Below are positions 22,631-43,349 of a stretch of 64,000 bases of DNA, piece after piece. Source of the stretch: Actinomycetota bacterium. GTDB taxonomy: Bacteria > Actinomycetota > Thermoleophilia > UBA2241. The stretch is from contig PKYG01000023.1 of NCBI GenBank assembly GCA_003132585.1, positions 11,841 through 75,840 on the forward strand, read 5' to 3'. Below the pieces are notes generated by a model. That model was given only the letters and a program-made list of their open reading frames with translations. It was not told where the DNA came from and ran no database searches. Both the position numbers and the translations under genes were made by a program. Position 1 is the stretch's first letter, and the number at the start of each line of letters is the position of its first letter.

Positions 22631-22886
22631 CGTCGATCAACTCGGCGAGCTGATTCACGAGTATCACCGAACAGCAGCGTCAGTCGGGATAAACGCACCC
22701 CTCACCGTGGTTCACGCGTCAAGTGACCTGACGCCATTCGTTCGTCCACCGTCTCTAGGAGCATCAACATACACCCGCAGCCCGCCCCAGACCGGTTAGA
22801 GTTGACACCGCACGGTGTGTCGCCACTCGCGAGCGACTTTTTGGCGTGCCCGTGGCGGCGCACTTCAAGATGACGGGAGACATGCG

Positions 22887-24131
22887 ATGATCACGATCGG
22901 CGCAGCGCTGGACGCCGTGCTTGCCTCGGCTCGCCCCCTGGGTGCAGAGGAGGTGCCGCTTGTCGAGGCCCTGGATCGCGTCGTGAGCGAGACTGTGACG
23001 TCTCCCACCGACCTGCCCCCGTTCACCAACTCGGCGATGGACGGGTACGCGGTGCGCGGCGAAGACCTGACCGGCGACCGGCAGTCGCTGCGTGTGATCG
23101 CCGAGATCCCTGCTGGCTCGGTCTCCGTCGCGCACGTTGGCGCCGGCCAGGCCGCGAAGATCATGACCGGCGCGCCGCTGCCCGCAGGCTCAGACACGGT
23201 GGTCCCTGTGGAACTGACCGAGCCGGCCTCTCACGCAGTCACGGTCGGCAGCAGCGTCGTCATCGGAGGCTCTGTCACCGCCGGCGCCAACGTGCGCCGT
23301 CGCGGAGAGGACTTGTCGAGCGGGGCGACCCTGTTGGCGCCGGGCCGCGTGCTCGGCCCGGCCGATCTGGGTCTGCTGGCAGCCGTCGGTCTGGCGACCG
23401 TGCGCGTCTCGAAGCGGCCTCGCGTCGCAATCCTCGCCACCGGCAGCGAACTGGTCGCCGTCGGGGAGCCACTCGGTCCGGGGCAGATTCGCGACGCCAA
23501 CTCGATCACGGCGTGCGGACAGGTCCTTCGGGCGGGAGGTCAGCCGCGGCTGCTCGGCATCGCACGAGACGATCGCGAGGACACGTGCCGGATGCTCGCG
23601 CAGGCTCTCGAAGCCGACGTCGTGGTCTCCTCCGGCGGTGTGTCGGTGGGGGAGTTCGATCTCGTCAAGGAGATGCTCGAGGAGCTCGGGGTCGACCGCC
23701 GCTTCTGGGGAGTCAAGGTCAAGCCCGGCTGGCCGCTCACCTTCGGCGTCAAAGGGGACACCCTGGTCTATGGGGTGCCGGGCAACCCGGTCGCCGCCAT
23801 GGTGTCCTTCGAGCTCTTCATCCGCCCGGCCATTCTGAAGCTACAGGGCCGCAGCGACGTCTATCGCCCGTGTGTCGACGCTGCCGCCGCAGAGCGCATC
23901 AAGCCGACCAAGCAGCGCGTCGAGCTCCCTCGCTGCCGCCTCATCCGCGGGGCAGGCGGGTGGACGTTTGCGAGGACCGGCCCGCAGGGTTCGGGGGCGC
24001 TCCGGTCGATGACACTCGCAGATGGGCTGGCGCTGGTTCCGGCCGGCTACCCCGGGAGCGAGTCTGGAGCCACGTTCCCGATCATGCTGCTCGACGGCAC
24101 CAGCAACGTGCGTCCACCGTTCCCCGAATGA
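22887..24131 (+). CDS. moeA: Molybdopterin molybdotransferase
   Basis: MITIGAALDAV…LPPFTNSAMDGYAVRGEDL… is MoeA/gephyrin-E-like over its full length. The ATG at 22887 is preferred over the ORF-track start at 22815. Confidence 0.85.
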   Translation: MITIGAALDAVLASARPLGAEEVPLVEALDRVVSETVTSPTDLPPFTNSAMDGYAVRGEDLTGDRQSLRVIAEIPAGSVSVAHVGAGQAAKIMTGAPLPAGSDTVVPVELTEPASHAVTVGSSVVIGGSVTAGANVRRRGEDLSSGATLLAPGRVLGPADLGLLAAVGLATVRVSKRPRVAILATGSELVAVGEPLGPGQIRDANSITACGQVLRAGGQPRLLGIARDDREDTCRMLAQALEADVVVSSGGVSVGEFDLVKEMLEELGVDRRFWGVKVKPGWPLTFGVKGDTLVYGVPGNPVAAMVSFELFIRPAILKLQGRSDVYRPCVDAAAAERIKPTKQRVELPRCRLIRGAGGWTFARTGPQGSGALRSMTLADGLALVPAGYPGSESGATFPIMLLDGTSNVRPPFPE

Positions 24132-24181: not shown

Positions 24182-25237
24182 TCAGCGCGCCGATGCCGCC
24201 GCGCCGCTCGCCGCCCGCGGCCGCGCCGGGAGCGGGAACGACCCGGGCTCCGCCACCAGCGCCGCCAGTGGGCACGCCTCGGCGCAGAGGCCACAGCCGG
24301 TGCATCTGGCGCCATCGACTTCGAGACTGCCCCCGTCCAGCCTGAGAGCCTCGTGCGGGCAGTAACGCACGCAGAGGCCGCACGCGTTACATTCGGCGCT
24401 CACCGCCACGGTGCCGAGGGGCAGCGACTCGGGAAGTGTCACCGGACCGGCTTCCGTCCCCTTGGCGAGCACGGACAGATCGCCGAGCAGCCAGACTCGC
24501 GTGGCCGGCGGCGGTGCCTGGCGATGCAGCTCGGCAACGGCGCGCTTCTGCGGGGCGATCGCCTCCGCCGCCGTGCGACGGAGGCCACGAGCGACGTAGG
24601 AGAAGAGGCCGCGCCGCGAGACCGACAACGCGTCCGACACTGCCTGCGGCGCGGAGCTGGGCACGCTGCCGCGGGTGATGATGGCATCCGCCCCCAGAAC
24701 TGACAGCGTCTCCGCGACGGTTTCGGTCGTGGCGTCGACCGCTGCGCCGGCCACCGCGTCGGCGCACGTGCCGCACTCGCCACTCAGGAGGCCGATCGTC
24801 ACGATGCCCAACGAGGCCGCCGCGATCAGGTCTGCCGCCGAGATCCCCCCGAGACATGGGACGACGATGACGTCGCGGACCGTGCCGTCATCGTCGTCCG
24901 CGCCCATGCCGACGCCGGCGTGGCGGCAGGCAAAACGGATCGTCCGCATGCACCCTGCCGCCACCTCCTGCAGGCGCTCCCGCAGAGCGGCGCTGCGCGC
25001 GACAAACGAGAGCGCCCCCGTCTTGCACACGGCCGCACAGGCGCCGCACGAGGTACAACGCTGTGGTTCGACCTGGAGCCATGTGGCGGACGTGATCGCC
25101 GCCGTGGGACAGACGTCGAGGCAGAGCCGGCACGAGCTGCCGCGGTATCGTGTGGCCACGCACAGCGGCGGTGCCACATCGGGCAAACGCAGGTCGAAAG
25201 CCCTCAGACCGGCGTCGACGAGGTTCAGACGGTCCAT
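24182..25237 (-). CDS. Multi-cluster [4Fe-4S] ferredoxin-type protein (electron-transfer partner of the Mo enzyme)
   Basis: Four or more CxxCxxCxxxCP motifs (CTSCGACAAVCKTG, CNACGLCVRYCP, CTGCGLCAEACP…). Start at MDRLNLVD (25237), 14 bp from the upstream gene stop. Confidence 0.65.
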   Translation of the reverse strand: MDRLNLVDAGLRAFDLRLPDVAPPLCVATRYRGSSCRLCLDVCPTAAITSATWLQVEPQRCTSCGACAAVCKTGALSFVARSAALRERLQEVAAGCMRTIRFACRHAGVGMGADDDDGTVRDVIVVPCLGGISAADLIAAASLGIVTIGLLSGECGTCADAVAGAAVDATTETVAETLSVLGADAIITRGSVPSSAPQAVSDALSVSRRGLFSYVARGLRRTAAEAIAPQKRAVAELHRQAPPPATRVWLLGDLSVLAKGTEAGPVTLPESLPLGTVAVSAECNACGLCVRYCPHEALRLDGGSLEVDGARCTGCGLCAEACPLAALVAEPGSFPLPARPRAASGAAASAR

Positions 25238-25250
25238 GCCGCGACGACCC

Positions 25251-26033
25251 CTAGCCTGCCGCATCCCCGTCGTCGGCGAGGCTTCCCTCCCCGAGCTCCA
25301 CGGACAGATGCGCGACGAGCAGATCGGACAGCGCCCGATAAAGCCCGCTCGTGGTGGCGGCCCCCACAGCCGCCGCGAACTCGGGCAGCCACAGGCCGGC
25401 GTGTTCGCGCAGGAACGCATCGAGCGCGCGACGCAGGCGCAGCGCCTCGTCGGTCGCCCCCTCGTCCCACGCGTCTTCTTCGCGGCGACACAGGGAGAAG
25501 AGAAACTCGAGCTCGATGGTGACGTGGTCGGGAAGCTCGCCCAGCTCCGCAACGGGAGCGGCGCCCTCGGCCGCGTAGGCGGTGGTGGCGAACGCCGCCG
25601 CCGCCCGATTCAGACGGCTCGGGCGCCGTGGGTCGGCATCGAGGTACTGCGATGCATAGCAGCGCACGGCCGGCGTTCCCGGTCCCGTGAACAGGCGTGC
25701 ATGCTCGACTCGCAGGTCACGCAGTGCAACAGCAGGATCGGCGTCGACCATCGCCGAGCCGGTCTGCGACAGGGCCTGGAACGCGGTCTCGTAGACAGCG
25801 GCATCGTCGCCGAGCCACGCGACTGCTGCGCGCAGACCGTCGTGCAGCTCACCGCTACGGAGTGCCTCGCAGTATGCCGGCGTGGGGTCCCCGAGGCCGA
25901 GGGCAAGAGCCTGATACACGGCGCCCCGGCGTGCGCACACGTCGGCCAGCCGCGCGGCCGGCTCGCCTTCCGGCGCGCCGGCCGCGCGGCCTAACGTCTG
26001 GCCGTGCGTGTCGCTCGGGTCGCCTTTGGTCAC
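25251..26033 (-). CDS. TorD/DmsD-family redox-enzyme maturation chaperone (C-terminal 260 codons of the 490-codon ORF)
   Basis: …YQALALGLGDPTPAYCEALR…LRVEHARLFTGPG…HVTIELEFLFSL… The GTG start at 26033 overlaps the NrfD stop (GTGA). The upstream part of the ORF overlaps nrfD in another frame. Confidence 0.55.
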   Translation of the reverse strand: MTKGDPSDTHGQTLGRAAGAPEGEPAARLADVCARRGAVYQALALGLGDPTPAYCEALRSGELHDGLRAAVAWLGDDAAVYETAFQALSQTGSAMVDADPAVALRDLRVEHARLFTGPGTPAVRCYASQYLDADPRRPSRLNRAAAAFATTAYAAEGAAPVAELGELPDHVTIELEFLFSLCRREEDAWDEGATDEALRLRRALDAFLREHAGLWLPEFAAAVGAATTSGLYRALSDLLVAHLSVELGEGSLADDGDAAG

Positions 26034-27288
26034 GTCGGCGACTTCTCCTTGAGCGGCAGGTACTTGATCGCCAGCGTGAACAGCAGGGCCGACAGCCCGA
26101 CGATGCCGAGCACGACCAGGAACTCCCACACCGATGGGAAGTAGACGCTGCTGGTGGCAAACGACGAACCGTTGGCTTGAGGCGTGCCCAGCGGCGTCCC
26201 GGGCGGCAGCGTTATGGGGTCCTTGCCCAAGCCGATCACGATGAGGTTGGCGCGGTGCACGAAGATGCCGATCAGCGCCAGCACCGACGCGGTCACTACG
26301 AACCGGGGCTGGCGTCGCAACGCGGCGCGGGCCATGAGGACGAAGGGAATCACCAGGCCGACGACGATCTCGACGCCGAAGCCCGGTGCGTAGCGCCCGG
26401 TGAACAGCTGGTGCACGGCATCGGTGGGGATGCCGGGGTAGTAGCCGGCGAGGACCTCGCAGAGCACGAGGAAGGCCTCGACCGCCAGGAAGACGGCGAG
26501 CAGGCCGCCCAGAAAGCCGCCCAGCTCGTCGCCGAACGAGACCCGGCCGCTGCGACGCACGATGAACGCCAGGATCGTCACCAAAGCGAGGCCCGAGACG
26601 AGTGCGGAGCTGATGAACAGCGGCGGCATGATCGCCGAATACCAGAAGCCGCGCGAGATCTGCAGGCCGAAGATCCAGGCGGTGATCGAGTGCACCAGTA
26701 CCGCCGCCGGCAACGCGATCCACGCCAGGGTGTACGTCAGATGGTGATCGTGAGCGCGAGCCTTGTCACTCGTATCCTTGGTCCCGAGCGCCATCCAGCT
26801 GCCGCGCGCGGCCAGGTCGCGTCTCATGTAGAGCCACAGGTAGAGCAACGAGAGCACCAGGTAGACCAGAATGACGGTGAGGTCCCAGATCATCGGCGAC
26901 AGCCAGTGCGGATGAAAGAAGAGGTTGTAGATCCGCCCGGCATGCCCCAAGTCGGGGATGATCAGGAGCGCCGCAGTGGCGATCGTCACCGTGGCCTCGA
27001 CAACGGCCAGGCGCACGATCGGCGTGAAGCGCTCGACGTTGAACAAACGCCCGGCCGAAGCCACGATGAGCCCGCCGGCAGACAGACCGACGAAGAACAT
27101 GAACGTGATGATGTAAACGCCCCAGATGACGTTGTCTCTCATGTGCGTGATCTGCAGCCCATGGATCATCTGGTAGATCCAGACGGCGAAACCGATGAGG
27201 ATCAGCGCGATGAGCACGCCGATCCACACCGTCATCGTGCGCGATCCACGAGCGGGGGCGGCAAGCGTGCTGTCTGTAGTGACGGTGC
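26030..27288 (-). CDS. NrfD/PsrC-type polysulfide-reductase-like integral membrane anchor subunit
   Basis: 8-10 TM helices; MTVWIGVLIALILIGFAVWIYQM…RDNVIWGVYIITFMFFVGLSAGG is typical of NrfD/PsrC. Start is GTG at 27288 (overlapping the upstream stop) or ATG at 27235. Confidence 0.8.
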
Positions 27289-27993
27289 TCACAGCGCACC
27301 TCCCACGGTGTTCGGACCTTGGCGGATGAGATAGTGCAGACTCGGCTTGGTCCCGCGCTCGGGGAAGACAACGTAGGACGGCCGGTCGCGAAGCAGGATC
27401 GACACCTTGCTGTTGGGGTCGTCGAGGTCGCCGAAGACGCGCGCCCCGGTGGGGCAGGCAACGACACAGCGCGGCAAGAGGCCGTCCGATGTGCGTTGCA
27501 CACAGAAGGTGCACTTCTCAACGACGCCCTTGGGCCGGGCCGGCGTCTCGCCGACGACAGTGACGCTCGCCGGCGGCTCCTGTACGGGCGCCCGCCAGTT
27601 GAACACGCGGTTGTCGTAGGGACAGGCCACCATGCAGTAGCGGCAGCCGATGCAGCGGTCGTAGTTCACGTTGACGATACCGTTGGGCATCTTGTAGGTC
27701 GCCTGCGTCGGGCAGGCCTTGACGCAAGGCGGATTGTCGCAGTGGAAGCAGTTGGTGGACTGATACGACATGGTCAGGGCGGGGAAGGTACCCGCGGGCA
27801 CGTCCATGGCGTCCCCGCCGACGGTCAGCACACGCAGCCAGTAGAGCCCGATGCCGACGTCCTGTTGCTCTTTGCATGCCACGGCACAACTCCAGCAACC
27901 GATGCACCTGTCTTGATCGACGACCATCCCCAGGCGCGTGGCTTTCTGCAGCGCCGGGTCGGGGACATCGATTCCAACATAGGACGTACTCAT
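27289..27993 (-). CDS. 4Fe-4S subunit of molybdopterin oxidoreductase (PsrB/DmsB/NrfC-like)
   Basis: CIGCWSCAVACK…, CFHCDNPPCVKACP…, CIGCRYCMVACP…, CTFCVQR…CVVACP (four FeS cluster motifs). Confidence 0.85.
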   Translation of the reverse strand: MSTSYVGIDVPDPALQKATRLGMVVDQDRCIGCWSCAVACKEQQDVGIGLYWLRVLTVGGDAMDVPAGTFPALTMSYQSTNCFHCDNPPCVKACPTQATYKMPNGIVNVNYDRCIGCRYCMVACPYDNRVFNWRAPVQEPPASVTVVGETPARPKGVVEKCTFCVQRTSDGLLPRCVVACPTGARVFGDLDDPNSKVSILLRDRPSYVVFPERGTKPSLHYLIRQGPNTVGGAL

Positions 27994-28045: not shown

Positions 28046-30577
28046 TCACGCCCCTTCCACCTGCACGAGGCAGTCGTAGTAGGCGGCGTTGGACGGGAAG
28101 TTGGGGATCACCGACTGGGCCGGGTTCGCGAGCTGGTGCGTCAGGTTGTTGGGATGACCCTCGACGTACTGCTTCACCGCGTTGCTGTCCCAGCCGCCCT
28201 GGTAACAGTTGACCACACCCGGCTTGATCGCCTCGGTCAGCTTAGCGTGGACCTTCATCTCACCGCGGTCGTTGAACACCCTGACCACCTGACCCTCAGC
28301 GACGCCGCGCGCCTGCGCGTCGCTGGGGTTGATCTCGAGGAAGCCCTGCCCGTTGGCCGTCACCTCATTCAGCCACGGCAGGTCGCAGTACTGCGAGTGC
28401 GTGCGGAACTTGGTGTGGGTCGACAGGAACGTCAGCGGATACTTTCCGGCCAACACGTTGTTGGGTGACGCCTCGATCGGCTCCTTGTAGTCGCAGACCT
28501 CCTGCCCGTAGGGCACGAGCATCTCGACGTAGAACTCGATCTTGCCGGACTTGGTCGGGAACTCCTTGTTGAAGAACGGGACGTACGGCACCGTCGGCAT
28601 GTTGAGGTGCGGGGCGCCGCTGACGAGCTGCCCCCACTTGAGTCCGGCCACGGTGGCGTCGGCATGCGCCGGGTCGCCGATGTGGAGCATCTCCTTGAGA
28701 TACTCGTCGGGGGTCTTGTTGAAGTACTGACCGACGCCCATCTTCTGCGCGACCATGCTCACCCCATCAAGATCCGACTTCGACTCCCACAACGGCTTGA
28801 CCACCGTCGGCATGTACTGGAGGTAAAAGCTGTTGGACGAGAGCAGATCGGTCTTCTCCATGTAAGTGCACGCCGGCAGCACCACGTCGGCGAGGTCGGC
28901 GGTGGCCGACATCACGTAGTCGGACACCACGAGGAAGTCCAGCGACTTGAGCGCCTTGATGACCGTGTTGCGGTCGGACATCTGCTGGGCGTAGTTGTCG
29001 ACCATGAACCAGGCGGCGCGTAGCGGGTGCGGCTTGTTCGTGAGCATGGCTTCGCAGGCCTGCATCGGCTGCATGACGGTGAACATGGTGGTGCCCGCGG
29101 GAGCCCACCAGCCGGGAAGGTCGAACGCCAGGGTCGTGAGTCCTCCGGCGAAAGTGGTCACGCCGCCGCCGTGCTCGCCGATGTTGCCGGTCAACGCCTG
29201 CAGGGTCAGCATCGCCTGCATGGTGAGGTCGCCGTGATACCAGTGGGAGAGGGCAAAACCGGCGCGGATGCCGACCGGATGAGTCGTGCCCCAGAGTTTG
29301 GCCAGCGCGACGATGTCGGTGGCCGCGATGTCGGTGAGCGACGCGGTGTATTCCGGCGTGTACTTGGCGACGGCGTCGGCGAGCACCTGGAACGCCGTCG
29401 GGGCTTTGAGCCCGCCGGCCGCAAACGTGCCGAGCAGCTGCGGCCGGCGAGCGCCCTTGGCCGCCGCGAGCTTGCCGCCGGCGGTGGCGACGACGTAGTC
29501 GTTGCCACCGAGACCGACATCCTTCGTGCGTAGCCACTTCTTGGTCTTCGGATTCACAAGGTAGGGCGCGACCGTGTACTGCTGCAGGTAGGTCGTGTCG
29601 TAGAGCCGCTGCTGGATAATGTAGTTGATCACCGCATCGGCGAGGGCGGCGTCGGTGCCCGGCCGGATAGGCAGCCACGCGTCGGAGCCGGCCGAGGTCG
29701 CCGTATAGCGGGGGTCGATGCTGACGACGGTGGCACCCTGCGCCTGCGCGTCCTTGATGACGCGCCAATCGGGGATCGATGTCTCAGCGACGTTGTTGGC
29801 CCAGAGCACGATCACCTTGGAGGAAAGGAAGTCGGTGGACTCGTGACCGTCGAAGAAGCCGCCACCGTTGCTCGGGTTGGCCGGGTCGACAAGCACGTAA
29901 TTCCAGCCGGCCGGGGTGGAGCTGTCGCCCTCGTTGTCGCCTTCGAAGTCGCCGGCCACGGCGCCGATCGCGCTGGCGAAGCGGAAGCCCACGCCGACAA
30001 CCCCTTCGAGAACGCTCAACGAGCCCGTGTACGGCGCGATCCACACCGAGTCCTTGCCGTACTTGGTCTGCACCTTTTTCAGGTTGTCGGCGATCATCGT
30101 GCTCGCCTCGTCCCAGCTGATCCGCTGCCACTGGCCCGAGCCGCGCTCTCCGACCCGCTTGTACGGGTACTTGATGCGCTCGGCGCTGTAGAGGTTCTCG
30201 AGCTGCGCCACGCCGCGCAGGCAGATGCGCGGCGGATACGACTGGGGGATCGACCGTCCGTCGATCGTCGTCTTGTCGTACGGCGCCCCCTCGACCAGCT
30301 TCACCTTGCCGTCGGCGACATGCACGAGATGACCGCAGGCGCCGTCGCAGTTATTGGAGTGTCCGGTGCGGATCAGCTGCTCGGGTACGGTTGGGGCGGC
30401 CGCATCGGCCCGCTGCAGCCCGCCGAGGAAGAGATCGTCGGCAGCGCCTCCCAGGGCCGCCGCGGCTCCGGCCGTCGCGACGCTGCCGATCAGGAACTTG
30501 CGGCGGTTGAAACGCCTGCCGCCCGGCGCGTCCTCCCCTCGCCCAGCGACGTTCGTCACATCGACTTCGTCCGTCAT
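28046..30577 (-). CDS. Tat-exported molybdopterin (bis-MGD) oxidoreductase catalytic subunit, PsrA/PhsA/TtrA-like
   Basis: Twin-arginine signal GRRFNRRKFLIGSVATAGAAA. FS0 motif H-x3-C-x3-C (HSNNCDGACGH). Molybdopterin oxidoreductase and dinucleotide-binding domains. ATG at 30577 is preceded by GGAGGAGG; an in-frame ATG 48 nt upstream is an alternative start. Confidence 0.85.
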   Translation of the reverse strand: MTDEVDVTNVAGRGEDAPGGRRFNRRKFLIGSVATAGAAAALGGAADDLFLGGLQRADAAAPTVPEQLIRTGHSNNCDGACGHLVHVADGKVKLVEGAPYDKTTIDGRSIPQSYPPRICLRGVAQLENLYSAERIKYPYKRVGERGSGQWQRISWDEASTMIADNLKKVQTKYGKDSVWIAPYTGSLSVLEGVVGVGFRFASAIGAVAGDFEGDNEGDSSTPAGWNYVLVDPANPSNGGGFFDGHESTDFLSSKVIVLWANNVAETSIPDWRVIKDAQAQGATVVSIDPRYTATSAGSDAWLPIRPGTDAALADAVINYIIQQRLYDTTYLQQYTVAPYLVNPKTKKWLRTKDVGLGGNDYVVATAGGKLAAAKGARRPQLLGTFAAGGLKAPTAFQVLADAVAKYTPEYTASLTDIAATDIVALAKLWGTTHPVGIRAGFALSHWYHGDLTMQAMLTLQALTGNIGEHGGGVTTFAGGLTTLAFDLPGWWAPAGTTMFTVMQPMQACEAMLTNKPHPLRAAWFMVDNYAQQMSDRNTVIKALKSLDFLVVSDYVMSATADLADVVLPACTYMEKTDLLSSNSFYLQYMPTVVKPLWESKSDLDGVSMVAQKMGVGQYFNKTPDEYLKEMLHIGDPAHADATVAGLKWGQLVSGAPHLNMPTVPYVPFFNKEFPTKSGKIEFYVEMLVPYGQEVCDYKEPIEASPNNVLAGKYPLTFLSTHTKFRTHSQYCDLPWLNEVTANGQGFLEINPSDAQARGVAEGQVVRVFNDRGEMKVHAKLTEAIKPGVVNCYQGGWDSNAVKQYVEGHPNNLTHQLANPAQSVIPNFPSNAAYYDCLVQVEGA

Positions 30578-30658
30578 GTGTCGCCTCCTCCGTATGCTCC
30601 GCACCACTGCAGCGGCGGGCGACATGGGTCGCTGCGCCGGCCGTGCGGGTCCTGCGCT

Positions 30659-30764
30659 CCTTTCCGAGCACGGGGAGGCCTGAGCGTTTCCGGTCAGGCC
30701 CACGGCGACACCTGGTGAGGGTGTCGCCCCACGGTCTGTCCGTGGTACGGCCGGCCGCCCGTAG
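30659..30764 (-). promoter_or_regulatory. Copy A of a ~105-nt structured leader RNA element (sense on the minus strand, in the 5' UTR of the Mo-enzyme operon); a sigma70-like promoter lies at ~30822-30850
   Basis: Reverse complement is ~85% identical to 31017-31118. Internal hairpins carry compensatory changes between copies. On the minus strand, -35 TTGCCA and -10 TACGAT lie upstream. Confidence 0.55.
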
Positions 30765-31016
30765 CGATCTGCTGCCGTAGGGCGACGGGCTCGGAGGTGG
30801 ACACCGAGCTGACGCCTCCATCGTAGCATCGACCTCCTGCGTGGCAAGGCCGCTTGCAGGCCCATGCGGCGTCGCTGCAGGTTCACTTGACCAAAGTCAA
30901 GTTGGCGCCGCGGCGTGAGGGTGCATGGTCATCGTTGTCAGCTCCCACCTCCGGTGGTAGCGTCGTCACGCCATACAATGGCGGATTCTCCAAGCCCCGG
31001 GTCCTACGGCTCTCAG

Positions 31017-31118
31017 CTACGGACCCCGGGCCGTACCACGGACAGACCGTGGGGCGTCGCTGGTGGCGACGTCGTGGGCCCGGCCGGAAACGACCGGACC
31101 TCCCCGTGCTTGGAAAGG
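31017..31118 (+). promoter_or_regulatory. Copy B of the same leader RNA element, immediately upstream of and including the SD of the molybdate transporter gene; candidate riboswitch
   Basis: CUACGG…CCACGGACAGACCGUGG…GCGUCGCUGGUGGCGACGU…GGCCCGGCCGGAAACGACCGGACCUCCCCGUGCUUGGAAAGGAG followed by the GTG start. TACAAT at 30974-30979. Confidence 0.55.
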
Positions 31119-31130
31119 AGAGTGGTCCGC

Positions 31131-32504
31131 GTGGCGGAGCCTTGGGCTCGCGTCACCCATCGCGACGAGCCACCCGCTCGACGACGGGTCGGCGGCGGCT
31201 CGTTGGCACAGGCGATTCGCTTCAACCGCTTCGAGCTCGCCGGCAGTATCGCCGACGTCGGTCTGATGGTCCCGCTGGCGTGCGGCGTCGCCGTCGCCAG
31301 CGGGGCCAACCTGGCCGTCATCTTCGCCTGCGTGGCGGCCAGCTACGCCGCCGTCGCCCTCGCTTTCCGGGCGCCCGTGCCGGTGCAGCCCATGAAGGTC
31401 ATGGCCGCCACGGTCATCGCCCTGCGACTCTCGCCCACCGTGGTCGGGATCGCAGGCGTTGAGATCGGGCTGGTGTTCCTTGTGCTCGCGCTCACGCCCG
31501 CCATGCGCGTGCTCGCGCGCCTGTTCCCGGCCGCGGTGATTCGCGGCATCCAGCTCGCGATCGGCCTGCTGCTGATAAAGAGCGCCATCCGCATGGCCAA
31601 CACGCCCAAGGCACTGCCGGGGAGCGCCCAGGGCATCCACGTGGGGAGTGTCACCGTATGGGCCGGCGTGGTGCTCGCCGCGGTCATCGGCCTGATCATG
31701 CTGATCCACCGGGGACGCGGACGCGTGCCCCTCGGCCTGCTGGTGCTCGCCGCGGGCGCGATCGTCGGCCTCGTCGCCCTGACGCTGGGCGTGGGCCACG
31801 TGGCTTCGGTCTCGGGAGTCTCCAGGAACGCGATCGTGCACCTACCCTCCGCCGGCGACGCCTGGGTGGCTTTCGTCGTCCTCGTCCTTCCCCAGCTTCC
31901 CCTGTCGCTCGGCAACGCCGTCTACGCCACCGAGGACGCGATGCAGCACTACTACAGCGATCAGGCGGCTCGGGTCACCCCGAGGAACCTCGGGGTGAGC
32001 ATGGGGGTGATCAACCTGGTCTGCGGAGCGCTCTCGGGCATGCCTCTCTGCCACGGCTCCTCCGGTGCGACCGCCGCCTACCGCTTCGGCGGGCGCACAG
32101 CGGGAACGACGCTGCTCGCCGGGGCATTCTACGCGCTGCTGGCGGTGGCCGTGGTCTTCCATGCGTCGCCACTCCTCGTGCCCGGCGCGGTCCTAGCGGG
32201 GCTCCTGCTCTTCGTCGGCATCGAGCACAGCCTGCTGGTGGCCGACCTGCGCTCGCTCGACGCGGTGGCGAGCGCCGCCGTGATCGGCGTCGCGACCCTC
32301 CTCACCGGGAACATGACCATTGGCTTCCTGCTGGGATGGGCGTGCTATGCGGCGCTGCGGCGGACGCCGTTGCGCCGCGTGCCGGTCCGCTGGCCGCGCC
32401 TGACGGCGTGGCTGGCGCCGCGACCGCAGGTCGCGGCGGCAGGACTGGCAGCCAGCGCCACTGCCGTGGCACCGCTCGCGCCGGCGGGCGGCGAGCGTCA
32501 GTAG
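31131..32504 (+). CDS. MOT1-family molybdate transporter (MFS_MOT1 / sulfate-permease-like)
   Basis: PVQPMKVMAATVIAL and SGMPLCHGSSGATAAY match the two MOT1 signature motifs (PxQPMK, CHGxGG). ~10 TM. GTG 31131 (or 31122) with AAGGAG upstream; the ORF-track start at 30915 overlaps the leader element. Confidence 0.6.
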   Translation: MAEPWARVTHRDEPPARRRVGGGSLAQAIRFNRFELAGSIADVGLMVPLACGVAVASGANLAVIFACVAASYAAVALAFRAPVPVQPMKVMAATVIALRLSPTVVGIAGVEIGLVFLVLALTPAMRVLARLFPAAVIRGIQLAIGLLLIKSAIRMANTPKALPGSAQGIHVGSVTVWAGVVLAAVIGLIMLIHRGRGRVPLGLLVLAAGAIVGLVALTLGVGHVASVSGVSRNAIVHLPSAGDAWVAFVVLVLPQLPLSLGNAVYATEDAMQHYYSDQAARVTPRNLGVSMGVINLVCGALSGMPLCHGSSGATAAYRFGGRTAGTTLLAGAFYALLAVAVVFHASPLLVPGAVLAGLLLFVGIEHSLLVADLRSLDAVASAAVIGVATLLTGNMTIGFLLGWACYAALRRTPLRRVPVRWPRLTAWLAPRPQVAAAGLAASATAVAPLAPAGGERQ

Positions 32505-33007
32505 CGGCGCAAGAGGTCGAGGCGCTCGGCGAGGAAGCCCGCGAGGCGCGCCGCCTCGCCGAGCCCGAAGACGTTCTCGTGCACCAGGTCCGCATCGGTC
32601 ACCAGCGCGAGCGCCTCGCCGGGCGCGCGGAGCGGCTGCTGGTGGCCGGCGGCCCGGCGGAAGACCTCCACCTTGTGCGGAGCCTGCAGCTTGTGGCCCT
32701 CGACCACGACGATGTCGAAGCCTGTGAAGAAACGCAGGACCAGGTCGGCGAGTTTCGCCTCACGATCGAGGCGGGCGACAAACGCGAGCTTGTCAGGCGA
32801 GTCGACCAGGTAGGCCTCGGCTCCCGCCTGCTCCATCCGCCAGGAGTCCTTGCCGGGCACGTCGACGTCGAAGCGGTGGGCGTCGTGCTTGACGGCCCCC
32901 ACGCGCAGCCCGAGGGCGCGGAGCTCGGGGATGAGCGCCTCAAGCAGGGTCGTCTTGCCGCTGTCGCTCTTGCCGACCACGCAGACCACAGCCGGACGCC
33001 GCACAAC
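32498..33007 (-). CDS. mobB: Molybdopterin-guanine dinucleotide biosynthesis adapter protein
   Basis: VVCVVGKSDSGKTTLLEALIPELRALGLRVGAVKHDAHRFDVDVPGKDSWR… (P-loop MobB). GTG start ~33007; convergent overlap with the 3' end of the MOT1 gene. Confidence 0.7.
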   Translation of the reverse strand, partial: VVRRPAVVCVVGKSDSGKTTLLEALIPELRALGLRVGAVKHDAHRFDVDVPGKDSWRMEQAGAEAYLVDSPDKLAFVARLDREAKLADLVLRFFTGFDIVVVEGHKLQAPHKVEVFRRAAGHQQPLRAPGEALALVTDADLVHENVFGLGEAARLAGFLAERLDLLRRY

Positions 33008-33066
33008 GCCGTCCCGTCCCTCGCTCTCCAGCCGCCGCCGCGCTTCCTCGAGGTCGGCGGGCGTGT

Positions 33067-33516
33067 TCAGGCTGAAGAAGAGCGCTGCCGAGGCGAACGG
33101 CACCTCGGCCACGCGCACTTCTCGGTAACCGGCAGCCCGACGTCCACGTCGCCGAACGCCTCGACGACCTCCTTGACCGCCGCACGCTCGGTGAACGCCA
33201 TGTCGGCGGCGAGCACGAAGATCGGCTCGCCGAAATGGGCGAGCGCGCTGACGATCCCCGCCAGCGGCGACCCCGGCGTCTCGTCGTAGACGACCTCGAA
33301 GCCCGAGGGAATCAGATCGGGCGATGCGCCGGCACGCAGCGAGACGGCAAGCCTCGGGAACACCTCGCGCAAGATGGTGGCGTTCCGCTCGATCAGCGTC
33401 GTTCCGCCGAGCATCTGCGTACGCTTGTCGAACCCCATTCTCCGCGCCTCGCCGCCGGCGAGCAGGACCCCGGTTGCGACCCGTCGACGTGGCGCTTGTC
33501 CAGTAGGCATCATCTC
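33067..33516 (-). pseudogene. mobA: Molybdenum cofactor guanylyltransferase, disrupted (internal deletion plus frameshift); the C-terminal motif continues in the mobB frame
   Basis: Frame A: MPTGQAPRRRVATGVLLAGGEARRMGFDKR…DVDVGLPVTE then nonsense and a stop at 33067. Frame B from ~33115: …YREVRVAEVPFASAALFFSLNTPADLEEA (MobA C-terminal motif) running into mobB. About 35 residues expected between the two segments are absent. Confidence 0.6.
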
Positions 33517-33540
33517 GGCCCGATCGTACCCCACATCCGG

Positions 33541-33885
33541 TTGACCTGCCCCCATCCATCGGTCCACTTCCGATGATAGTGCGAGAGCCGGTCCCTGTGT
33601 GAGGACGGCAGGTTGGTCCGACTGCTGGACGTTCCCGTGTCGTGCTCTGCCGTCAGAAAGTCCGGATTTGCAGCGGCTTCTGTCGTCTCGCCGACGCCGA
33701 GCCGACGTCGGCGGCGCAGTACCTCACCAACTGCAGCGATTCACAAGGCCATTGAACCTGACTCGAGGCGCCAACGCTGATGAAGCAGGCATCTGGAGAT
33801 TCAAGGTCGGTCGAGATCATCGTCTGAGCCCAGAAGAGGCCGCCGAGGAACTGCTGGGTGCCCTCGGCGGCCTCTCTTTCGGTCG
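33541..33885. repeat. Copy 1 (diverged, full length) of a ~350-nt multi-copy intergenic element (P1 + degenerate M/Q modules)
   Basis: 33575-33715 is ~80% identical to 35650-35790, with compensatory hairpin changes (GGTCC…GGAC versus GACC…GGTC). Entirely intergenic between mobA and the GGDEF gene. Confidence 0.6.
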
Positions 33886-35610: not shown

Positions 35611-35980
35611 GATCTGACCCCATTCGTTGGTCCGATTCTCATGCTAGTGCGAGCGTCGGTCGCCGTGTGAGGACGGCAGGTTGGACCGTTTGCTGGAGGT
35701 CTTGGGGGAACCTCTCGCCTCTGAAGTGCTGGAGGTCTTGTTCTTGTGTCTGGCCGTCAGAAAGCCAAGACTTGCAGCGACTGCTGTCGTCTCGCCGACG
35801 CGAAGCCGACGTGTGCTGCTGTGAAGACCCCCAGCAGCCAACGTGAGGGCGCCGACACATGCCGACGCCACCAGGGGCCGTACAGCGCTACAGAGCGTAC
35901 GTGAGCTGGTCGGCGATCTTCGATCCGAAAACCATAACCTCAACCTGGATCGATTTCAGGGGTGCGGGTCAACGGTACCC
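35611..35980. repeat. Copy Y (most complete: P1 + M + Q) of the multi-copy intergenic element, between the GGDEF gene and the integrase
   Basis: Shares P1 with 33575-33715 and M+Q with 58111-58286; Q also matches 22557-22630. Contains an internal 13-nt tandem duplication (gctggaggtcttg x2). Confidence 0.6.
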
Positions 35981-36004
35981 CTCCCAGTGATGAGGAGGTC
36001 GACC

Positions 36005-37246
36005 ATGCGCGGCCACATCCGCAAGCGCGGCAAACAAGGCTACGAGTACATCATCGACATCGGTCCCCACCCCGCCCAGCGCTGCCAGAGTTGCAGCAAG
36101 CGCTTCTGGGTGGAGCGGCGACCGAAACGCAGCTGTCCCCGATGCGGCGGTGAGCTCTCCGAGGTCGAGGAGCGTCGGCGCGAGACCAAGGCCGGCTTTC
36201 GCACGCTGACCGAGGCGCAGCAGGCGATGAGCAAGGCGCTCACGGCGGTCGCAGAGCAGCGCCACGTGATCGCCACGCCCGTCAGCGTAGCTGAGTTTCT
36301 CATCGACGTCTGGCTGCCGGCGATCATGCCCACCGTCAGGCCGACGACTCATGCCGGCTATCGCAGCGCCTGTTTGCGCCACGTCTGCCCCCGCCTCGGG
36401 CAGGTGAAGCTGCAGCGCTTAGACGGCGCGATGCTCAACTCACTCTATGCGCATCTCTCAAAAGCAGGCGGCATCCGCCGCGAAGGCGGCCTGGCGCCGC
36501 GCAGCGTGGCCCTCGTGCACCGCACCCTGCACCGCGCCCTCGCGGACGCCGTGCGCTGGGGCTATCTTCCCTACAGCACAGCCGATAGAGCCGACCCGCC
36601 GCGGCAGACGGGCCTCGAGCGTGAGCTGCCCGTCTGGTCTGAGGAGCAGTTGCACAGCTTTCTCGATAGTGTGCGCGAGGAGCGCCTCTACCCGCTGTGG
36701 CGCTTTCTCTCGATGACCGGCTGCCGGCGCGGTGAGGCCTTAGGGCTGCAATGGCGTGATCTCGACATGGAGAGTTCCCGCGTTGCCATCCGCCGAGCAC
36801 TGATCCCGATCGATGGCAAGCTGCTTGTCTCGGAGCCGAAGACAAAACGTGGGCGCCGGCTGATCGCCCTCGATCAAGAGACCTTGGCGGTCTTGCGCGA
36901 ACAAGCCGCCTGCCAGCTCTCCGAGGAGCGCCTCTGGGGTGAGGGCTGGGTGTCCTCGGGCTACGTCTTTACCAAGGAGAGCGGCGAGCCGCTGCACCCC
37001 GAGCGGATCAGCGCCCTCTTTGGTCGCCTGGTGCGCCGGGCGTGTTTGCCCAAGATCCCCCTGCATGGCCTCAGACACACCTATGCCAGCCTCGCGCTCG
37101 CCAAGGGCGTCAATCCGCTGATCGTCTCCCGCCGGCTGGGGCACTCGACGGTGGCCTTTACCTTGGACGTCTACTCACACGTCCTGCCACAGGTCGATGC
37201 CGAGGCGGCGGAGCTGATCGCCGGCATCTCCCCACGCCTCAGCTGA
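36005..37246 (+). CDS. Tyrosine-type site-specific recombinase/integrase (phage-integrase family)
   Basis: C-terminal LHGLRHTYASLALAKGVNPLIVSRRLGHSTVAFTLDVYSHV (R-H-R-Y catalytic region). ATG 36005 with a GAGGAGG Shine-Dalgarno; the ORF-track start at 35843 lies within the repeat element. Confidence 0.85.
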   Translation: MRGHIRKRGKQGYEYIIDIGPHPAQRCQSCSKRFWVERRPKRSCPRCGGELSEVEERRRETKAGFRTLTEAQQAMSKALTAVAEQRHVIATPVSVAEFLIDVWLPAIMPTVRPTTHAGYRSACLRHVCPRLGQVKLQRLDGAMLNSLYAHLSKAGGIRREGGLAPRSVALVHRTLHRALADAVRWGYLPYSTADRADPPRQTGLERELPVWSEEQLHSFLDSVREERLYPLWRFLSMTGCRRGEALGLQWRDLDMESSRVAIRRALIPIDGKLLVSEPKTKRGRRLIALDQETLAVLREQAACQLSEERLWGEGWVSSGYVFTKESGEPLHPERISALFGRLVRRACLPKIPLHGLRHTYASLALAKGVNPLIVSRRLGHSTVAFTLDVYSHVLPQVDAEAAELIAGISPRLS

Positions 37247-37729
37247 CTCCGGCTTCCCACACGCAAGTCACGCTCGATCAAGATCGACTCCTCGTGCCCG
37301 CGTTGCGCGCTCGACGCTTGTGTCAGTGCGCTCAGAAACCTGCGTCATTTGCAGGGGGAAATCAGCTCGATGTCGGCGGAATGGTGACCGCTCACGCCTG
37401 AGCGCGGCGCGGAGGCGCCATTCGTCGCGCCATCCGGTCCGGGAGTTATGCGCGATTTGCAGGCGAAACGGTGGTGGCGGGGGACAGAATTGAACTGTCG
37501 ACACCATGATTTTCAGCCGTCACAGACCGTGCCTGCGGTGCCCGTCTAGCCTCCACACAGCCCCATACAGTGCCACTATTTCCACTGTTTCACATGGGCA
37601 TGTTGGCAAGAATGTTGGCAAGGAAGGAGTAGAACCAGGCAGCCGGTAGCAGCCGTAGACAGGACATTGAAACCGCAGAGGGGCCCGCTCGAGCGATCGG
37701 CGGGCTCCTCTGCATTTGTCACCTTTGAC

Positions 37730-38110
37730 ACCGCTTCGTCGCCCTCTCCGGTTGACCGCCAACGACGTGCTCTGGGTGCTGGCCGATCTCTTCTTGGAGT
37801 ACGGCATCCCCGAGCACATCCGCTCCGACAACGGGCCCGAGTTCGTCGCCAAGGCGGTGCGGGGTTGGCTCTCGCCGAGCTGGGGGTCACCACCCTGTTC
37901 ATCGAGCCCGGCTCGCCTTGGGAGAACCGCTACGTCGAGTCGTTCAACGGCAAGCTCAGAGATGAGCTTCTCAACGGCGAGATCTTCTACACGCTCAAGG
38001 AAGCTCAGATCCTGGTCGCCAACTGGCGGCGGCTCTACAACGGCCTGCGCCCGCACAGCTCGCTGGGACAACGCCCGCCGGCGCCCGAGACGATCGTCTG
38101 GCCGGGCTTC
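37730..38110 (+). pseudogene. IS3-family transposase remnant (rve integrase-core C-terminus, N-truncated and frameshifted)
   Basis: HIRSDNGPEFVAKAV in one frame, then IEPGSPWENRYVESFNGKLRDELLNGEIFYTLKEAQILVANWRRLYNGLRPHSSLG in another frame. No N-terminal HTH or DDE N-part. Confidence 0.55.
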
Positions 38111-38419
38111 TCGCTTGCAGACTTCGGCCCCCCGTCGCCTACACGGGAGGTAGCCCTGGGACTGATATGGAGCAGCATCTGTCAAGCGGCCGACGTCGAA
38201 CCGCCCGCACTCGCTGAGGCGGGGTTGGAGTGGATTACCGGAGGACGCCGCGGTGAGCGCGCCGGGCTGCGATAGCGACGCGCGGTCAGTCTGATATGCG
38301 CGGGTTTGGCTATCCGCATGACCGTCTCTGCGTCGGGAGCGGCGCTGCTCTAACGGCGAGCGTGGCCCTCTCAGAGGGCTGCTCATAGTCCCATCGCGCA
38401 TGCTCCTCGCGCTGGCGGC

Positions 38420-42414: not shown

Positions 42415-43244
42415 CCCGCAAATACGGTCTCAACCAGCTCGTCCATTGTGGCCAGCATCTCCTCGTCGTCACTGAGCGGGCGCGTGACCGCCACCCGGAC
42501 AGCTGAGCGCGGGGTAAGCCCGCGTTGAATCAGCCGGCCGGCGTTGACCAGAAGGCGAGTCGAAGCCCCCTCTTCCAAGCCGTGGTCCTTCAAATTCCTC
42601 AGCTGGTGGGCCAGCTCGACGAGCTGCACCGACATCTTCTCGGGAACGTCTGTCTCCGAGCGGACTATCTCCGCCTCGAGCTCCCTCTCCGGGTAGTCGA
42701 ACTCGAGAGCGACAAAACGCTGGCGCGTCGAGGGCTTCAGATCCTTGAGAATGCTCTGATAGCCCGGGTTGAAGGAGATGACGAGCACGAAGTCCTCGTG
42801 CGCGGAAAGGAAGCTTCCCCGCTTCTCCAGGGGCAGAATGCGCCTATCGTCCGCCAGAGGATGGATGATGACGATAGTGTCTTTCCTCGCTTCGACAAAC
42901 TCGTCCAGGTAGCAAACCGCCCCCCGCCTGACCGCCGTGGTCAGCGGCCCGTCCATCCAGACGGTTTCCCCGCCGACGAAGAGGTAGCGCCCGACCAGGT
43001 CCGAGGCGGTTAGATCTTCGTGGCAGGCAACGGTTATGAGGGGCAAGCTCAACCGATGAGCCATATACTCGAGAAAACGGGTCTTCCCGCTGCCCGTAGG
43101 CCCCTTGAGCATGACAGGGAGCTTCAGGGCATGAGCCTTCTCGAAGAGCTCTACCTCCTCCCCAAGGGGTCGGTAGAAGGGCTCCCGGATGATTCGGTAG
43201 TCCTCGAGGCTCCCGTCTCTTCCGTATTCCGTCGCCTCTCGCAT
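42411..43244 (-). CDS. CbbQ/NorQ/NirQ-family (MoxR-class) AAA+ ATPase
   Basis: [48 protein letters not shown]…[13 protein letters not shown]… (Walker A/B, CbbQ-type N-terminus). Confidence 0.85.
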
Positions 43245-43349
43245 TTGCGCTCATCACTCCTACGGGTCGAACAGCATGCGCCCTGAGTAGCCCAATGGTG
43301 CTCCTGTGGGTGTCCCGGCGTGGTGGTGTTCCGCCGCGGGTCCTGGGTG

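Follow-up and report, generated by a model that had tools for sequence, protein, structure and literature searches.

Two divergent Moco riboswitches between a MOT1-family transporter gene and a molybdopterin oxidoreductase operon in an Actinomycetota contig

We analyzed a 64-kb stretch of an Actinomycetota contig (the window) in which two transcription units point away from a shared intergenic region. On the plus strand, a gene with a GTG start (31131..32504) encodes a putative molybdate transporter of 457 amino acids that belongs to the MOT1 family (PF16983, MFS_MOT1; 112.7 bits against a Pfam cut-off of 30); no NCBIfam model matches this protein at E ≤ 1e-10. On the minus strand, the gene that starts with ATG at 30577 (28046..30577) encodes the 843 amino acid catalytic subunit of a Tat-exported molybdopterin oxidoreductase of the bis-MGD type (Pfam: Molybdopterin, Molydop_binding), which carries an RRxFL Tat motif. 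Behind it, on the same strand and likewise identified by Pfam, are genes for a 4Fe-4S subunit (27289-27993), an NrfD-type membrane subunit (26030-27292), a NarJ/TorD-like chaperone (about 25251-26033) and a polyferredoxin (24182-25552); no NCBIfam equivalog cut-off is reached in this operon. Both gene starts agree with a preliminary description of the locus and were also called, independently, on a metagenome contig of identical sequence (L082).

A covariance-model scan finds just two Rfam matches in all 64 kb, and both are to RF01055, the Moco riboswitch. The transporter copy lies on the plus strand at 30976-31136 (58.1 bits, E-value 2.4e-11) and is full-length (model positions 1-135); the oxidoreductase copy lies on the minus strand at 30796-30657 (48.1 bits, E-value 2e-08) and is a local match (model positions 13-119). 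The gathering score of the family is 36 bits, and the E-values are computed for the 64-kb window. Within the transporter gene, a mir-598 match far below threshold (26 bits; gathering score 69) was set aside as chance. The preliminary description had proposed a Moco-type riboswitch before both the Mo-enzyme operon and MOT1, each copy being sense-oriented relative to the gene whose 5' leader it occupies, and had named the RF01055 scan beforehand as the test. The proposal is borne out: both copies score above the gathering threshold on the matching strands, and the Pfam context agrees.

The inverted repeat on which that proposal was built is real, but its dimensions have to be corrected. In addition to the arms at 30657-30712/31065-31120 (56 nt, 82% complementary) and 30725-30765/31016-31056 (41 nt, 90%), there is a third arm pair at 30774-30796/30988-31010 (23 nt, 78%) that had been overlooked, so that the unit is approximately 140 nt long rather than 105 and the spacer between the units approximately 190 bp rather than 250. 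The part missed is the 5' third of each element, with the 5' strands of P1 and P2. It is also misleading to call the RNA duplicated. In an alignment of 81 sequences, each copy is absent from the ten closest relatives of the other: the plus-strand copy is closest to L081 (96%), followed by riboswitches with a modA-like downstream gene where this was checked, and the nearest relative of the minus-strand copy is L193 (89%), which is of the oxidoreductase type. Since the closest relatives differ, we reject the idea that the arms arose by a recent local duplication or have undergone gene conversion; two family members have been placed divergently. Judged from sequence and model, the inverted repeat is a pair of members of the already known Moco riboswitch class, of the P3-containing type.

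Both copies have the RF01055 architecture of P1, P2, P4 and P5 plus P3, the same five stems as in the Moco RNA motif (Weinberg 2007; Regulski 2008, PMC2408646) exemplified by the E. coli moaA leader. In the transporter copy, the 5' strand of P1 is UUCUCC (30986..30991, core CUCC 30988-30991; family model). P2 (30994..31031) consists of P2a (30994-31004/31021-31031) and P2b (31008-31011/31015-31018), and P4 (31076..31101) carries a GAAA tetraloop at 31087-31090; model and covariation agree on both. Between them, folding and covariation define the hairpins P3a (CCACGG-ACAGA-CCGUGG, 31036..31052) and P3b (GCGUCGC...GCGACGU, 31054..31072). In the model, P5 (31102..31113) pairs CC 31102-31103 with GG 31112-31113 and has the conserved loop CCGUGCUU; model and folding place the 3' strand of P1, GGAGAG, at 31117..31122. 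The oxidoreductase copy occupies 30657..30802 on the minus strand, i.e., the Rfam match plus the 5' strand GUCC (30802-30799) of an extended P1. Its P1 (30796-30793/30660-30657) and P5 (30675-30674/30665-30664) are placed by the model, P2 (30790-30750) and P4 (30701-30676, GAAA at 30690-30687) by model and covariation, and P3a (30745-30729) and P3b (30727-30705) by covariation.

The check on covariation with homologs, which had also been suggested, supports P1 to P4. When 81 relatives are aligned with MAFFT, blind to structure, base pairing is kept in 91.4% of cells and 24 pairs are changed on both sides, which none of 500 shuffles reaches; slid controls leave 30-50% of cells paired. The extended P1, P2, P3a, P3b and P4 all hold pairs changed on both sides; the core P1 and P5 are nearly invariant and hence uninformative for covariation. 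P3 is where the RNAs depart from the family model: inserts of 39 and 43 nt take the place of 13 nt and form two hairpins. The pair 68-78 of P3a is UA in 55 sequences and CG in 26, with no mismatch in any of the 81, and the P3a loop ACAGA is near-invariant. P3b is hypervariable and all seven of its pairs change on both sides. The two helices earlier said to be preserved by compensatory substitutions are real and correspond to P3b (GCGUCGC/GCGACGU in one copy, GCGACAC/GUGUCGC in the other) and P4 (GGGCCCGG/CCGGACC in one, GGGCCUGA/UCAGGCC in the other); both covary across the relatives. By this alignment, the two-hairpin P3 defines a subtype of the Moco riboswitch. The bulge of P2 (CCUACG...UACGG) is a variant of the 11-nt receptor CCUAAG...UAUGG, whose canonical form is found in relatives such as L003; it is tetraloop-receptor-like and a candidate partner of the GAAA on P4. 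The GAAA of P4 with a receptor in P2, the 3' end of the form ...CCUCC...GGAAAGGAG and the presence of P3 are shared with the RF01055 class, as is the position before genes for molybdate transport, Moco synthesis and Moco-using enzymes.

In the transporter copy, the Shine-Dalgarno sequence (SD) GGAG at 31117-31120 is part of the 3' strand of P1 and lies 10 nt ahead of the GTG start. This is the RBS-in-P1 OFF platform of the class, as in E. coli moaA (PMC2408646). Among the relatives listed, ATG, GTG or TTG mostly follows GGAAAGGAG by approximately 5-9 nt; the clear exception is the oxidoreductase-type leaders. An SD embedded in the 3' end of this copy had been recognized earlier, but its partner in the family model is the CUCC in the 5' strand of P1 and not the internal CCUCC (31098-31102), which forms the end of P4 plus P5. 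Binding of Moco would close P1 and hide the SD, and less of the MOT1 molybdate transporter would be made. By its layout, the transporter copy is a canonical translational OFF switch, and a terminator scan finds no intrinsic terminator in either leader.

The region between the copies contains candidate promoters for both directions. On the plus strand, transcription directed by the -10-like box TACAAT (30974..30979) would be expected to begin near 30984-30986, exactly where P1 starts. Of the two -10 boxes that had been proposed, this one is present as described but is not called by the promoter scan, because a -35 match is absent, and the position reads TACCCT in the 85%-identical relative L081. 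The other is recovered by the scan as TTGCCA-16-TACGAT (30820..30847, minus strand), a putative promoter of the oxidoreductase operon; a TANNNT box lies 18-24 nt upstream of P1 in eight of ten orthologous oxidoreductase leaders. Midway between the riboswitches is a perfect palindrome, ACTTGAC-CAAA-GTCAAGT (30885..30902), which occurs once in 64 kb and is a candidate FNR/CRP-type operator. Its box TTGACCAAAGTCAA, with the core TTGAC-N4-GTCAA at 30887-30900, is kept 94-98 nt from P1 in nine orthologous loci, and in L106/L153 the spacing is consistent with a position of about -42 relative to the predicted transcription starts. No CRP/FNR-type regulator (cNMP-binding/HTH_Crp) is found among about 40 ORFs of the window. 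The arrangement resembles that of E. coli moaABCDE, where FNR, ModE and a Moco riboswitch act together (PMC2408646), in having an FNR/CRP-type site (TTGA-N6-TCAA) upstream of a Moco riboswitch. It differs in that the box is TTGAC-N4-GTCAA and would serve a Mo-enzyme operon, possibly also the divergent transporter.

The oxidoreductase copy is built differently. The GGAG of its P1 is not the SD of the gene, and no ATG, GTG or TTG follows for 31 nt. Instead there is a 65-nt hairpin-forming spacer and then a second SD. The spacer (30599..30656) contains the 3' strand GGAC of the extended P1 (30652-30649) and an imperfect GC-rich hairpin (30648-30599), and the true SD, GGAGGAGG (30584..30591), lies 66 nt downstream of the P1 GGAG. 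Neither platform of the class, RBS in P1 or intrinsic terminator, was found in this copy, and a leader of this kind, in which the GGAG is no SD, the spacer forms a hairpin and a later SD is complementary to the core, is not described for RF01055. A leader peptide or alternative start after the proximal GGAG was considered and rejected, as there is no usable codon and the ACG (30644) does not share the frame of the gene. A proximal in-frame start exists in only three of 11 orthologous leaders, where classical SD-in-P1 control of a longer form of the protein may operate. Just after the proximal GGAG, the ACG of the window is ATG in L106/L153 and L197, and in L151/L177 a GTG comes two bases later. 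All 11 independent oxidoreductase leaders share the order of aptamer, spacer (63-87 nt from the P1 GGAG to the ATG), second SD and conserved ATG. The spacer hairpin is weak in the window, with a z-score of -0.8, and the z-score is at or below about -2 in nine of the 11 orthologs.

How might such a leader work? The SD region GAGCAUACGGAGGAGGC (30583..30599) is predicted to form a duplex with the 3' core of the aptamer, GCCUCCCCGUGCUC (30679-30666). In the proposed alternative pairing, its part GAGCAUAC (30599-30592) pairs with the core at 30673-30666, and the stretch 30592-30584 is also complementary to the 5' strand of P1 at 30800-30792. The predicted energy of the duplex between core and SD region is -25.7 kcal/mol in the window, and each of the 11 orthologous leaders falls within the range of -18.8 to -26.5 kcal/mol, although complementarity of CCUCC to GGAGG is partly trivial. 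The translation-initiation regions of the oxidoreductase genes are more complementary to the core than are 42 control regions (-23.8 versus -17.6 kcal/mol), and two orthologs that have no riboswitch lack this complementarity (-10 to -20 kcal/mol). Cognate pairs of core and SD region are favored over non-cognate pairs with a permutation p-value of 0.023, which is inflated because the sequences are related. The initiation region of the NrfD gene is approximately as complementary to the aptamer core as that of the oxidoreductase itself, and covariation of the 5' strand of P1 with the distal SD is not significant (permutation p-value = 0.11). In unconstrained minimum free energy (MFE) folds, the SD is paired with CCUCC strands of the aptamer in nine of ten leaders. 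When P1 is forced, its accessibility rises in nine of ten, from 0.03-0.36 to 0.40-0.92, values that vary with the RNA ends chosen. P1 occupancy in silico proved too sensitive to these ends and was discarded as a discriminator of ON and OFF control, and a palindromic GGCCGGCC pairing between spacer and aptamer, seen in the MFE fold of the window, was discarded since it is absent from the predicted fold of L193.

Ligand-activated control of translation is known from other riboswitches. In the add adenine riboswitch of Vibrio vulnificus, for example, ligand binding frees a sequestered SD. We propose something similar here. Without Moco, the SD region would pair with the 3' core of the aptamer and the 5' strand of P1, and translation would be blocked; with Moco, the aptamer would be locked and the SD freed, and the Moco-dependent enzyme would be made. 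As in add, a strand of the aptamer would pair with the SD as long as no ligand is present, and binding would release it. Unlike in add, the aptamer class and ligand are others, a 65-nt spacer hairpin intervenes, and the direction of control is read from complementarity and folding. The layout conserved in 11 orthologous leaders suggests a Moco-activated ON switch. We put a probability of roughly 0.85 on the overall reading of the locus as two separate, divergent Moco riboswitches that share a promoter region of approximately 190 bp, the transporter copy being an OFF switch and the oxidoreductase copy most likely an ON switch. Our more specific proposal is tentative, and we would not be surprised to see it revised: that the oxidoreductase copy and the ten orthologous leaders represent an undescribed ON platform, in which the GGAG of P1 is a decoy and the CCUCCYCGUGC core sequesters the SD, brought near by the spacer hairpin, for as long as the aptamer is not locked by Moco.

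Could the oxidoreductase copy be an OFF switch after all, acting by Rho-dependent termination, by a terminator that the spacer hairpin forms without a U tract, or by a P1-stacked helix of the 5' leader with the initiation region? All platforms of the class in the founding paper are OFF switches, with the RBS in P1 or an intrinsic terminator (PMC2408646), and a moa leader from mycobacteria has been suggested to involve an interplay of riboswitch and Rho (PMC13650167). A stable GC-rich hairpin directly follows the aptamer in all 11 leaders, and in the P1-forced fold of the window leader a part of the 5' leader still contacts the SD (accessibility only 0.40). However, no U tract follows the spacer hairpins of the orthologous leaders or occurs in the spacer of the window, and the terminator scan came back empty. 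No conserved CCUCC-like anti-SD was seen on reading the spacers of the orthologous leaders, and on this ground we rejected an OFF design of the thiM type, in which the spacer would supply the anti-SD. Repression of a Moco-dependent enzyme when Moco is plentiful would also make little physiological sense. We regard OFF control of this copy as rather unlikely.

It is improbable that the oxidoreductase copy is a decaying relic that has lost an adjacent start codon and with it its regulation. The ACG in place of the ATG or nearby GTG of the orthologs mentioned above would fit such decay, as would the lower and local Rfam score, and in L081 and L196 the oxidoreductase riboswitch has been destroyed by IS elements and the downstream gene kept. 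Against this, compensatory changes maintain every helix of the aptamer among orthologs with a protein identity of 70-89%, and the spacer and second SD are retained in every one of the 11 leaders despite a diverged spacer sequence.

Still less probable is that the aptamers sense a tungsten cofactor (Tuco/Wco) or a precursor of Moco. The Rfam family spans Mo and W variants, and specificity is not readable from sequence alone. In the founding study, P3-containing RNAs were associated with Moco-related genes only and P3-less RNAs with tungsten metabolism (PMC2408646); both copies have P3. The regulon, moreover, consists of MOT1, modA-like, mobA/B and molybdopterin oxidoreductase genes and adjoins moeA and mobB. 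From P3 and this regulon we infer that the ligand of both copies is Moco, for which direct binding was not shown in the founding paper of the class, the cofactor being unstable (PMC2408646).

In about 120 Thermoleophilia-like loci, a riboswitch of the same subtype is found before MOT1, modA or an orthologous oxidoreductase gene. It is found upstream of MOT1 in six of six Thermoleophilia-type loci and upstream of six of nine oxidoreductase orthologs, with a seventh cut by an IS element. In 110 metagenome loci retrieved with the P3a pattern, it precedes MOT1 (about 46), modA-like SBP_bac_11, mobA/B or the orthologous oxidoreductase (7). A MITE or other repetitive element, a protein-binding inverted repeat or a cruciform, which a long imperfect intergenic inverted repeat and the transposases nearby in relatives might bring to mind, can be dismissed: the 64-kb window has just two copies and each of the 110 loci has one, the downstream gene, where identifiable, is Mo-related in nearly all, the element is kept upstream of orthologs, and both copies are RF01055 members outside each other's ten closest relatives, with covariation that tracks RNA helices within the arms. 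In other phyla, Chloroflexota and Desulfobacterota among them, a Moco riboswitch was seen near none of the MOT1 homologs at 37 loci, a count that excludes the Calditrichota locus L057, where the arrangement of Moco riboswitch and MOT1 is present. In Caldithrix abyssi, the annotation of a bacterial MOT1 homolog as a molybdate transporter has already drawn on the pairing of a Moco riboswitch with PF16983 (PMC5317091). The riboswitch there lies approximately 1.1 kb upstream, before a moa/moe operon that includes the transporter gene (PMC5317091); here and in approximately 50 Thermoleophilia-type loci it lies directly before the transporter gene, with the SD inside P1.

The identification itself is of little consequence, since any Rfam-based annotation would label both copies and there is precedent for each of the gene associations; members of the class are already on record from Actinobacteria and before Moco-using oxidoreductases (PMC2408646). 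The approximately 50 independent loci with the SD in P1 lend regulon-based support to a role in molybdenum uptake for the MOT1 homologs of Thermoleophilia-type Actinomycetota. The two-hairpin P3 subtype could aid structural work on the class, whose structure was still listed as unknown in a 2024 review (PMC11672702). Ligand-activated control is not described for the Moco riboswitch class in the searchable literature, and a candidate ligand-activated member before a Moco-dependent enzyme is concrete and testable. The palindrome together with a riboswitch would combine an anaerobiosis-type signal with cofactor sensing. If the oxidoreductase copy is indeed an ON switch, this one divergent region, with its shared FNR/CRP-like operator, would respond to a single ligand by shutting down molybdate import and turning on a Moco-dependent respiratory enzyme.

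An imperfect inverted repeat precedes both a molybdoenzyme operon and a MOT1 transporter gene, as the preliminary description had reported. Two arm pairs, 30657-30712/31065-31120 and 30725-30765/31016-31056, are 82% and 90% complementary, and a third (30774-30796/30988-31010, 78%) falls outside the coordinates given there. Each repeat unit is about 140 nt long with about 190 bp between the two, not the 105 nt and 250 bp first proposed. The same description had suggested a Moco-type riboswitch and a search against RF01055, the molybdenum/tungsten cofactor riboswitch aptamer; the search is positive on both strands. Scanned at gathering threshold (a score of 36 for RF01055), the whole window gives exactly two Rfam matches, both to this family: 30976-31136 on the plus strand (58.1 bits, full model) and 30796-30657 on the minus strand (48.1 bits, model positions 13-119). 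Relaxing the threshold over 30300-31500 brings in just one further match, to mir-598 (31257-31322) inside the transporter coding region, which we take as chance (26 bits against a gathering score of 69; E = 0.007). The two elements are new members of a known riboswitch class, which had previously been reported from Actinobacteria and in front of genes for transport, biosynthesis, and Moco-using enzymes (PMC2408646). Tandem copies are also known (PMC9481103).

The minus-strand gene (28046-30577) is identified by Pfam as a molybdopterin oxidoreductase, and its product carries an RRxFL Tat motif. It is followed by genes for a 4Fe-4S subunit, an NrfD-type membrane subunit, a NarJ/TorD-like chaperone, and a polyferredoxin; the catalytic subunit reaches no NCBIfam equivalog cut-off. 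The plus-strand gene (31131-32504) matches Pfam MFS_MOT1, and genes for MoeA (22815-24131) and MobB (32498-33559) flank the molybdenum cluster. An identical JGI metagenome contig (L082) has the same gene calls with the same starts, and the MAGs that hold protein relatives carry Thermoleophilia or Actinomycetota labels. Elsewhere in the window, 0.8-22 kb is taken up by a large cluster of glycosyltransferase and polysaccharide-synthesis genes. Three mobile-element genes at 35843-39639 (tyrosine integrase, 35843-37246; rve integrase fragment, 37667-38275; IS110-family transposase, 38458-39639), directly after a GAF-GGDEF gene bordering the molybdenum cluster, may mark the boundary of a mobile element. 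Genes related to a nickel-pincer cofactor and to lactate may be gathered at 39718-53028, where we find a CbbQ/NorQ AAA+ and VWA pair (39718-43244), a LarC-like protein for nickel insertion (43350-44162), a PP-loop ATPase (45066-45914) that is possibly LarE-like, BKACE, DUF362, and one LUD/CCG lactate-utilisation-type protein (50815-53028). A type I restriction-modification system (R subunit, S subunit, N6 methylase; 58302-63972) lies at the right end.

We collected related riboswitches from MOT1 loci in genomes (L001-L005, L081), from a metagenome scan with the signature of the P3a hairpin (110 loci, L083-L192), and from oxidoreductase orthologs (L193-L200), and aligned 81 distinct copies with MAFFT without structure input. 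The family structure pairs 91.4% of the cells of this alignment, against 30-50% for slid controls, and 24 pairs are changed on both sides; the observed values were reached in none of 500 shuffles. The P3 region measures 39 and 43 nt in the window copies versus 13 in the RF01055 model, and holds two hairpins, P3a and P3b, rather than one (31036-31072 and 30745-30705). P3a reads CCAYGG-ACAGA-CCRUGG. One of its pairs is U-A in 55 copies and C-G in 26 with no mismatch, under a search pattern that tolerated mismatches, and the second base of the ACAGA loop is that loop's sole variable position. P3b is hypervariable in sequence and always paired, with all seven pairs covarying. The compensatory helices named in the preliminary description are P3b and P4. 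The internal CCUCC that it took to sequester the Shine-Dalgarno (SD) sequence is, in the model, the end of P4 plus P5; this role was wrongly assigned because the 5' third of each element (P1 5' strand CUCC and P2 5' strand) had been missed. Both window copies have a GAAA tetraloop and a receptor-like P2 bulge. In the founding paper on the class, having a P3 distinguishes Moco-type from tungsten-type RNAs (PMC2408646). No description of the Thermoleophilia subtype was found in the searchable literature, whose incomplete coverage makes this weak evidence.

In the transporter copy, P1 pairs UUCUCC (30986-30991) with GGAGAG (31117-31122), GGAG (31117-31120) forming the 3' strand, and the gene starts at GTG 31131; the minimum free energy fold matches the family structure. 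Most relatives of this proximal type have a start codon within about 5-9 nt after GGAAAGGAG. The layout is that of the OFF design with the RBS in P1, for which there is genetic evidence from E. coli moaA (PMC2408646). A Moco riboswitch has been published in front of a PF16983 transporter in Caldithrix abyssi (PMC5317091), and Calditrichota locus L057 likewise has one in front of MOT1; none was found at 37 MOT1 loci of other phyla. Other riboswitches occur near MOT1 homologs (L024:2039-2107, L072:373-437, L077:8495-8572): fluoride riboswitches within a few kb in one Desulfacinum and one Gemmatimonadaceae MAG, and a c-di-GMP-I-GGC riboswitch 3' of the homolog in an Actinomycetota MAG.

A repeat family is excluded by the single riboswitch copy at each related locus and by the identified downstream genes, which are nearly always molybdenum-related. 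The element precedes MOT1 at about 46 of the 110 metagenome loci, the orthologous oxidoreductase at seven, and modA-like SBP_bac_11 lipoproteins at most others; at a few it is followed by mobA/B, an MFS_1 gene, or an NTPase, and a few of the ORFs behind it lack a Pfam match. Local duplication is also excluded, since in the 81-sequence alignment the ten closest relatives of each window copy do not include the other. The transporter copy is nearest to that of L081 (96%) and next mainly to modA-associated copies, while the oxidoreductase copy groups with the oxidoreductase-type L193 (89%).

The oxidoreductase copy has an intact aptamer and a platform unlike the rest of the class. No ATG, GTG, or TTG occurs for 31 nt past the P1 GGAG (30660-30657). 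There follow, on the minus strand, an extended-P1 strand GGAC (30652-30649), an imperfect spacer hairpin (30648-30599), and the gene's own SD, GGAGGAGG (30591-30584), then ATG 30577; a terminator scan of this leader found none. RF01055 is present at the same place in six of nine orthologous operons. In a seventh (L196) the 5' third is gone through insertion of an rve-type IS (L196:1691-2761), which left the spacer, second SD, and operon in place. All 11 independent leaders share 63-87 nt from P1 GGAG to ATG, a second SD, and a conserved ATG. Their spacers diverge in sequence and form a stable hairpin in nine (z-score at or below about -2), the window scoring just -0.8. Three orthologous leaders (L153, same as L106; L151, same as L177; L197) have an in-frame ATG or GTG 12-13 nt past the proximal GGAG, which would put 23-25 extra residues before the conserved start; the window has an out-of-frame ACG (30644-30642) where L106/L153 and L197 carry ATG. 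The proximal start codons could be left over from SD-in-P1 control or be an alternative to it.

We lean towards an ON switch for this copy, Moco raising expression, with a probability of roughly 0.4. When folded without constraints, nine of ten leaders pair the distal SD with an aptamer CCUCC strand, which is the P1 5' strand for the window, L193, and L194 and the 3' core CCUCCYCGUGC for six others (in L153 the SD pairs inside the spacer). Forcing P1 raises SD accessibility in nine of ten, and both results point to ON. The predicted window duplex of GCCUCCCCGUGCUC (30679-30666) with GAGCAUACGGAGGAGGC (30599-30583) has -25.7 kcal/mol, and across the 11 leaders, without exception, the equivalent core/SD-region duplexes lie between -18.8 and -26.5 kcal/mol. 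Cognate duplexes are slightly better than non-cognate ones (permutation p = 0.023, inflated by the relatedness of the sequences). Complementarity to the core is higher for oxidoreductase initiation regions than for 42 control initiation regions of the same loci, and the two riboswitch-less orthologs lack it. No conserved anti-SD was seen on reading the spacers. We also count for ON the sensible physiology of making a Moco enzyme only when Moco is present. Some form of OFF switch is somewhat less likely, and the remaining probability goes to an unresolved or non-functional platform. The ON reading is limited by CCUCC/GGAGG pairing being partly trivial, by fold outcomes that vary with the chosen RNA ends, and, as to specificity, by the NrfD initiation region, whose complementarity to the core roughly equals that of the oxidoreductase's own. 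The NrfD region includes CCACGGGAGGUGCGCUGUGAG (27292-27330, with equivalent sites in L193-L200); the end of the Fe-S subunit gene overlaps this region and probably constrains it. Covariation between the 5' strand and the SD was not found (p = 0.11; related sequences). An ON-type Moco platform was not found described in the searchable literature either, again weak evidence given incomplete coverage.

The divergent riboswitches have a perfect palindrome midway between them, ACTTGAC-CAAA-GTCAAGT (30885-30902), at distances of 94 and 97 nt from their P1 strands. TTGAC-N4-GTCAA occurs once in the window, which is not significant alone. The same box lies 94-98 nt 5' of P1 in nine loci (eight oxidoreductase-type leaders and L081), 86 nt in L197 and 53 nt in L106/L153, and also precedes the riboswitch-less ortholog L199. 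By its sequence, the box resembles FNR/CRP-family sites (TTGA-N6-TCAA) and is a candidate operator. The layout recalls E. coli moaA, which is under FNR-plus-riboswitch control; no FNR/CRP-family regulator gene was found in the window. A TANNNT box lies 18-24 nt 5' of P1 in eight of ten oxidoreductase leaders and supports the predicted minus-strand promoter. L081, whose MOT1 is 85% identical, retains the box and the predicted oxidoreductase promoter, and of the second riboswitch it keeps the P1 5' strand; the divergent arrangement is therefore ancestral to the window and L081 lineages. At L081:7130-7240 a DDE transposase truncates the oxidoreductase-type riboswitch after that strand, and the MOT1 riboswitch beside it is intact. 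The points that merit experiment are the non-canonical platform on the oxidoreductase side and the conserved candidate operator, and these alone.
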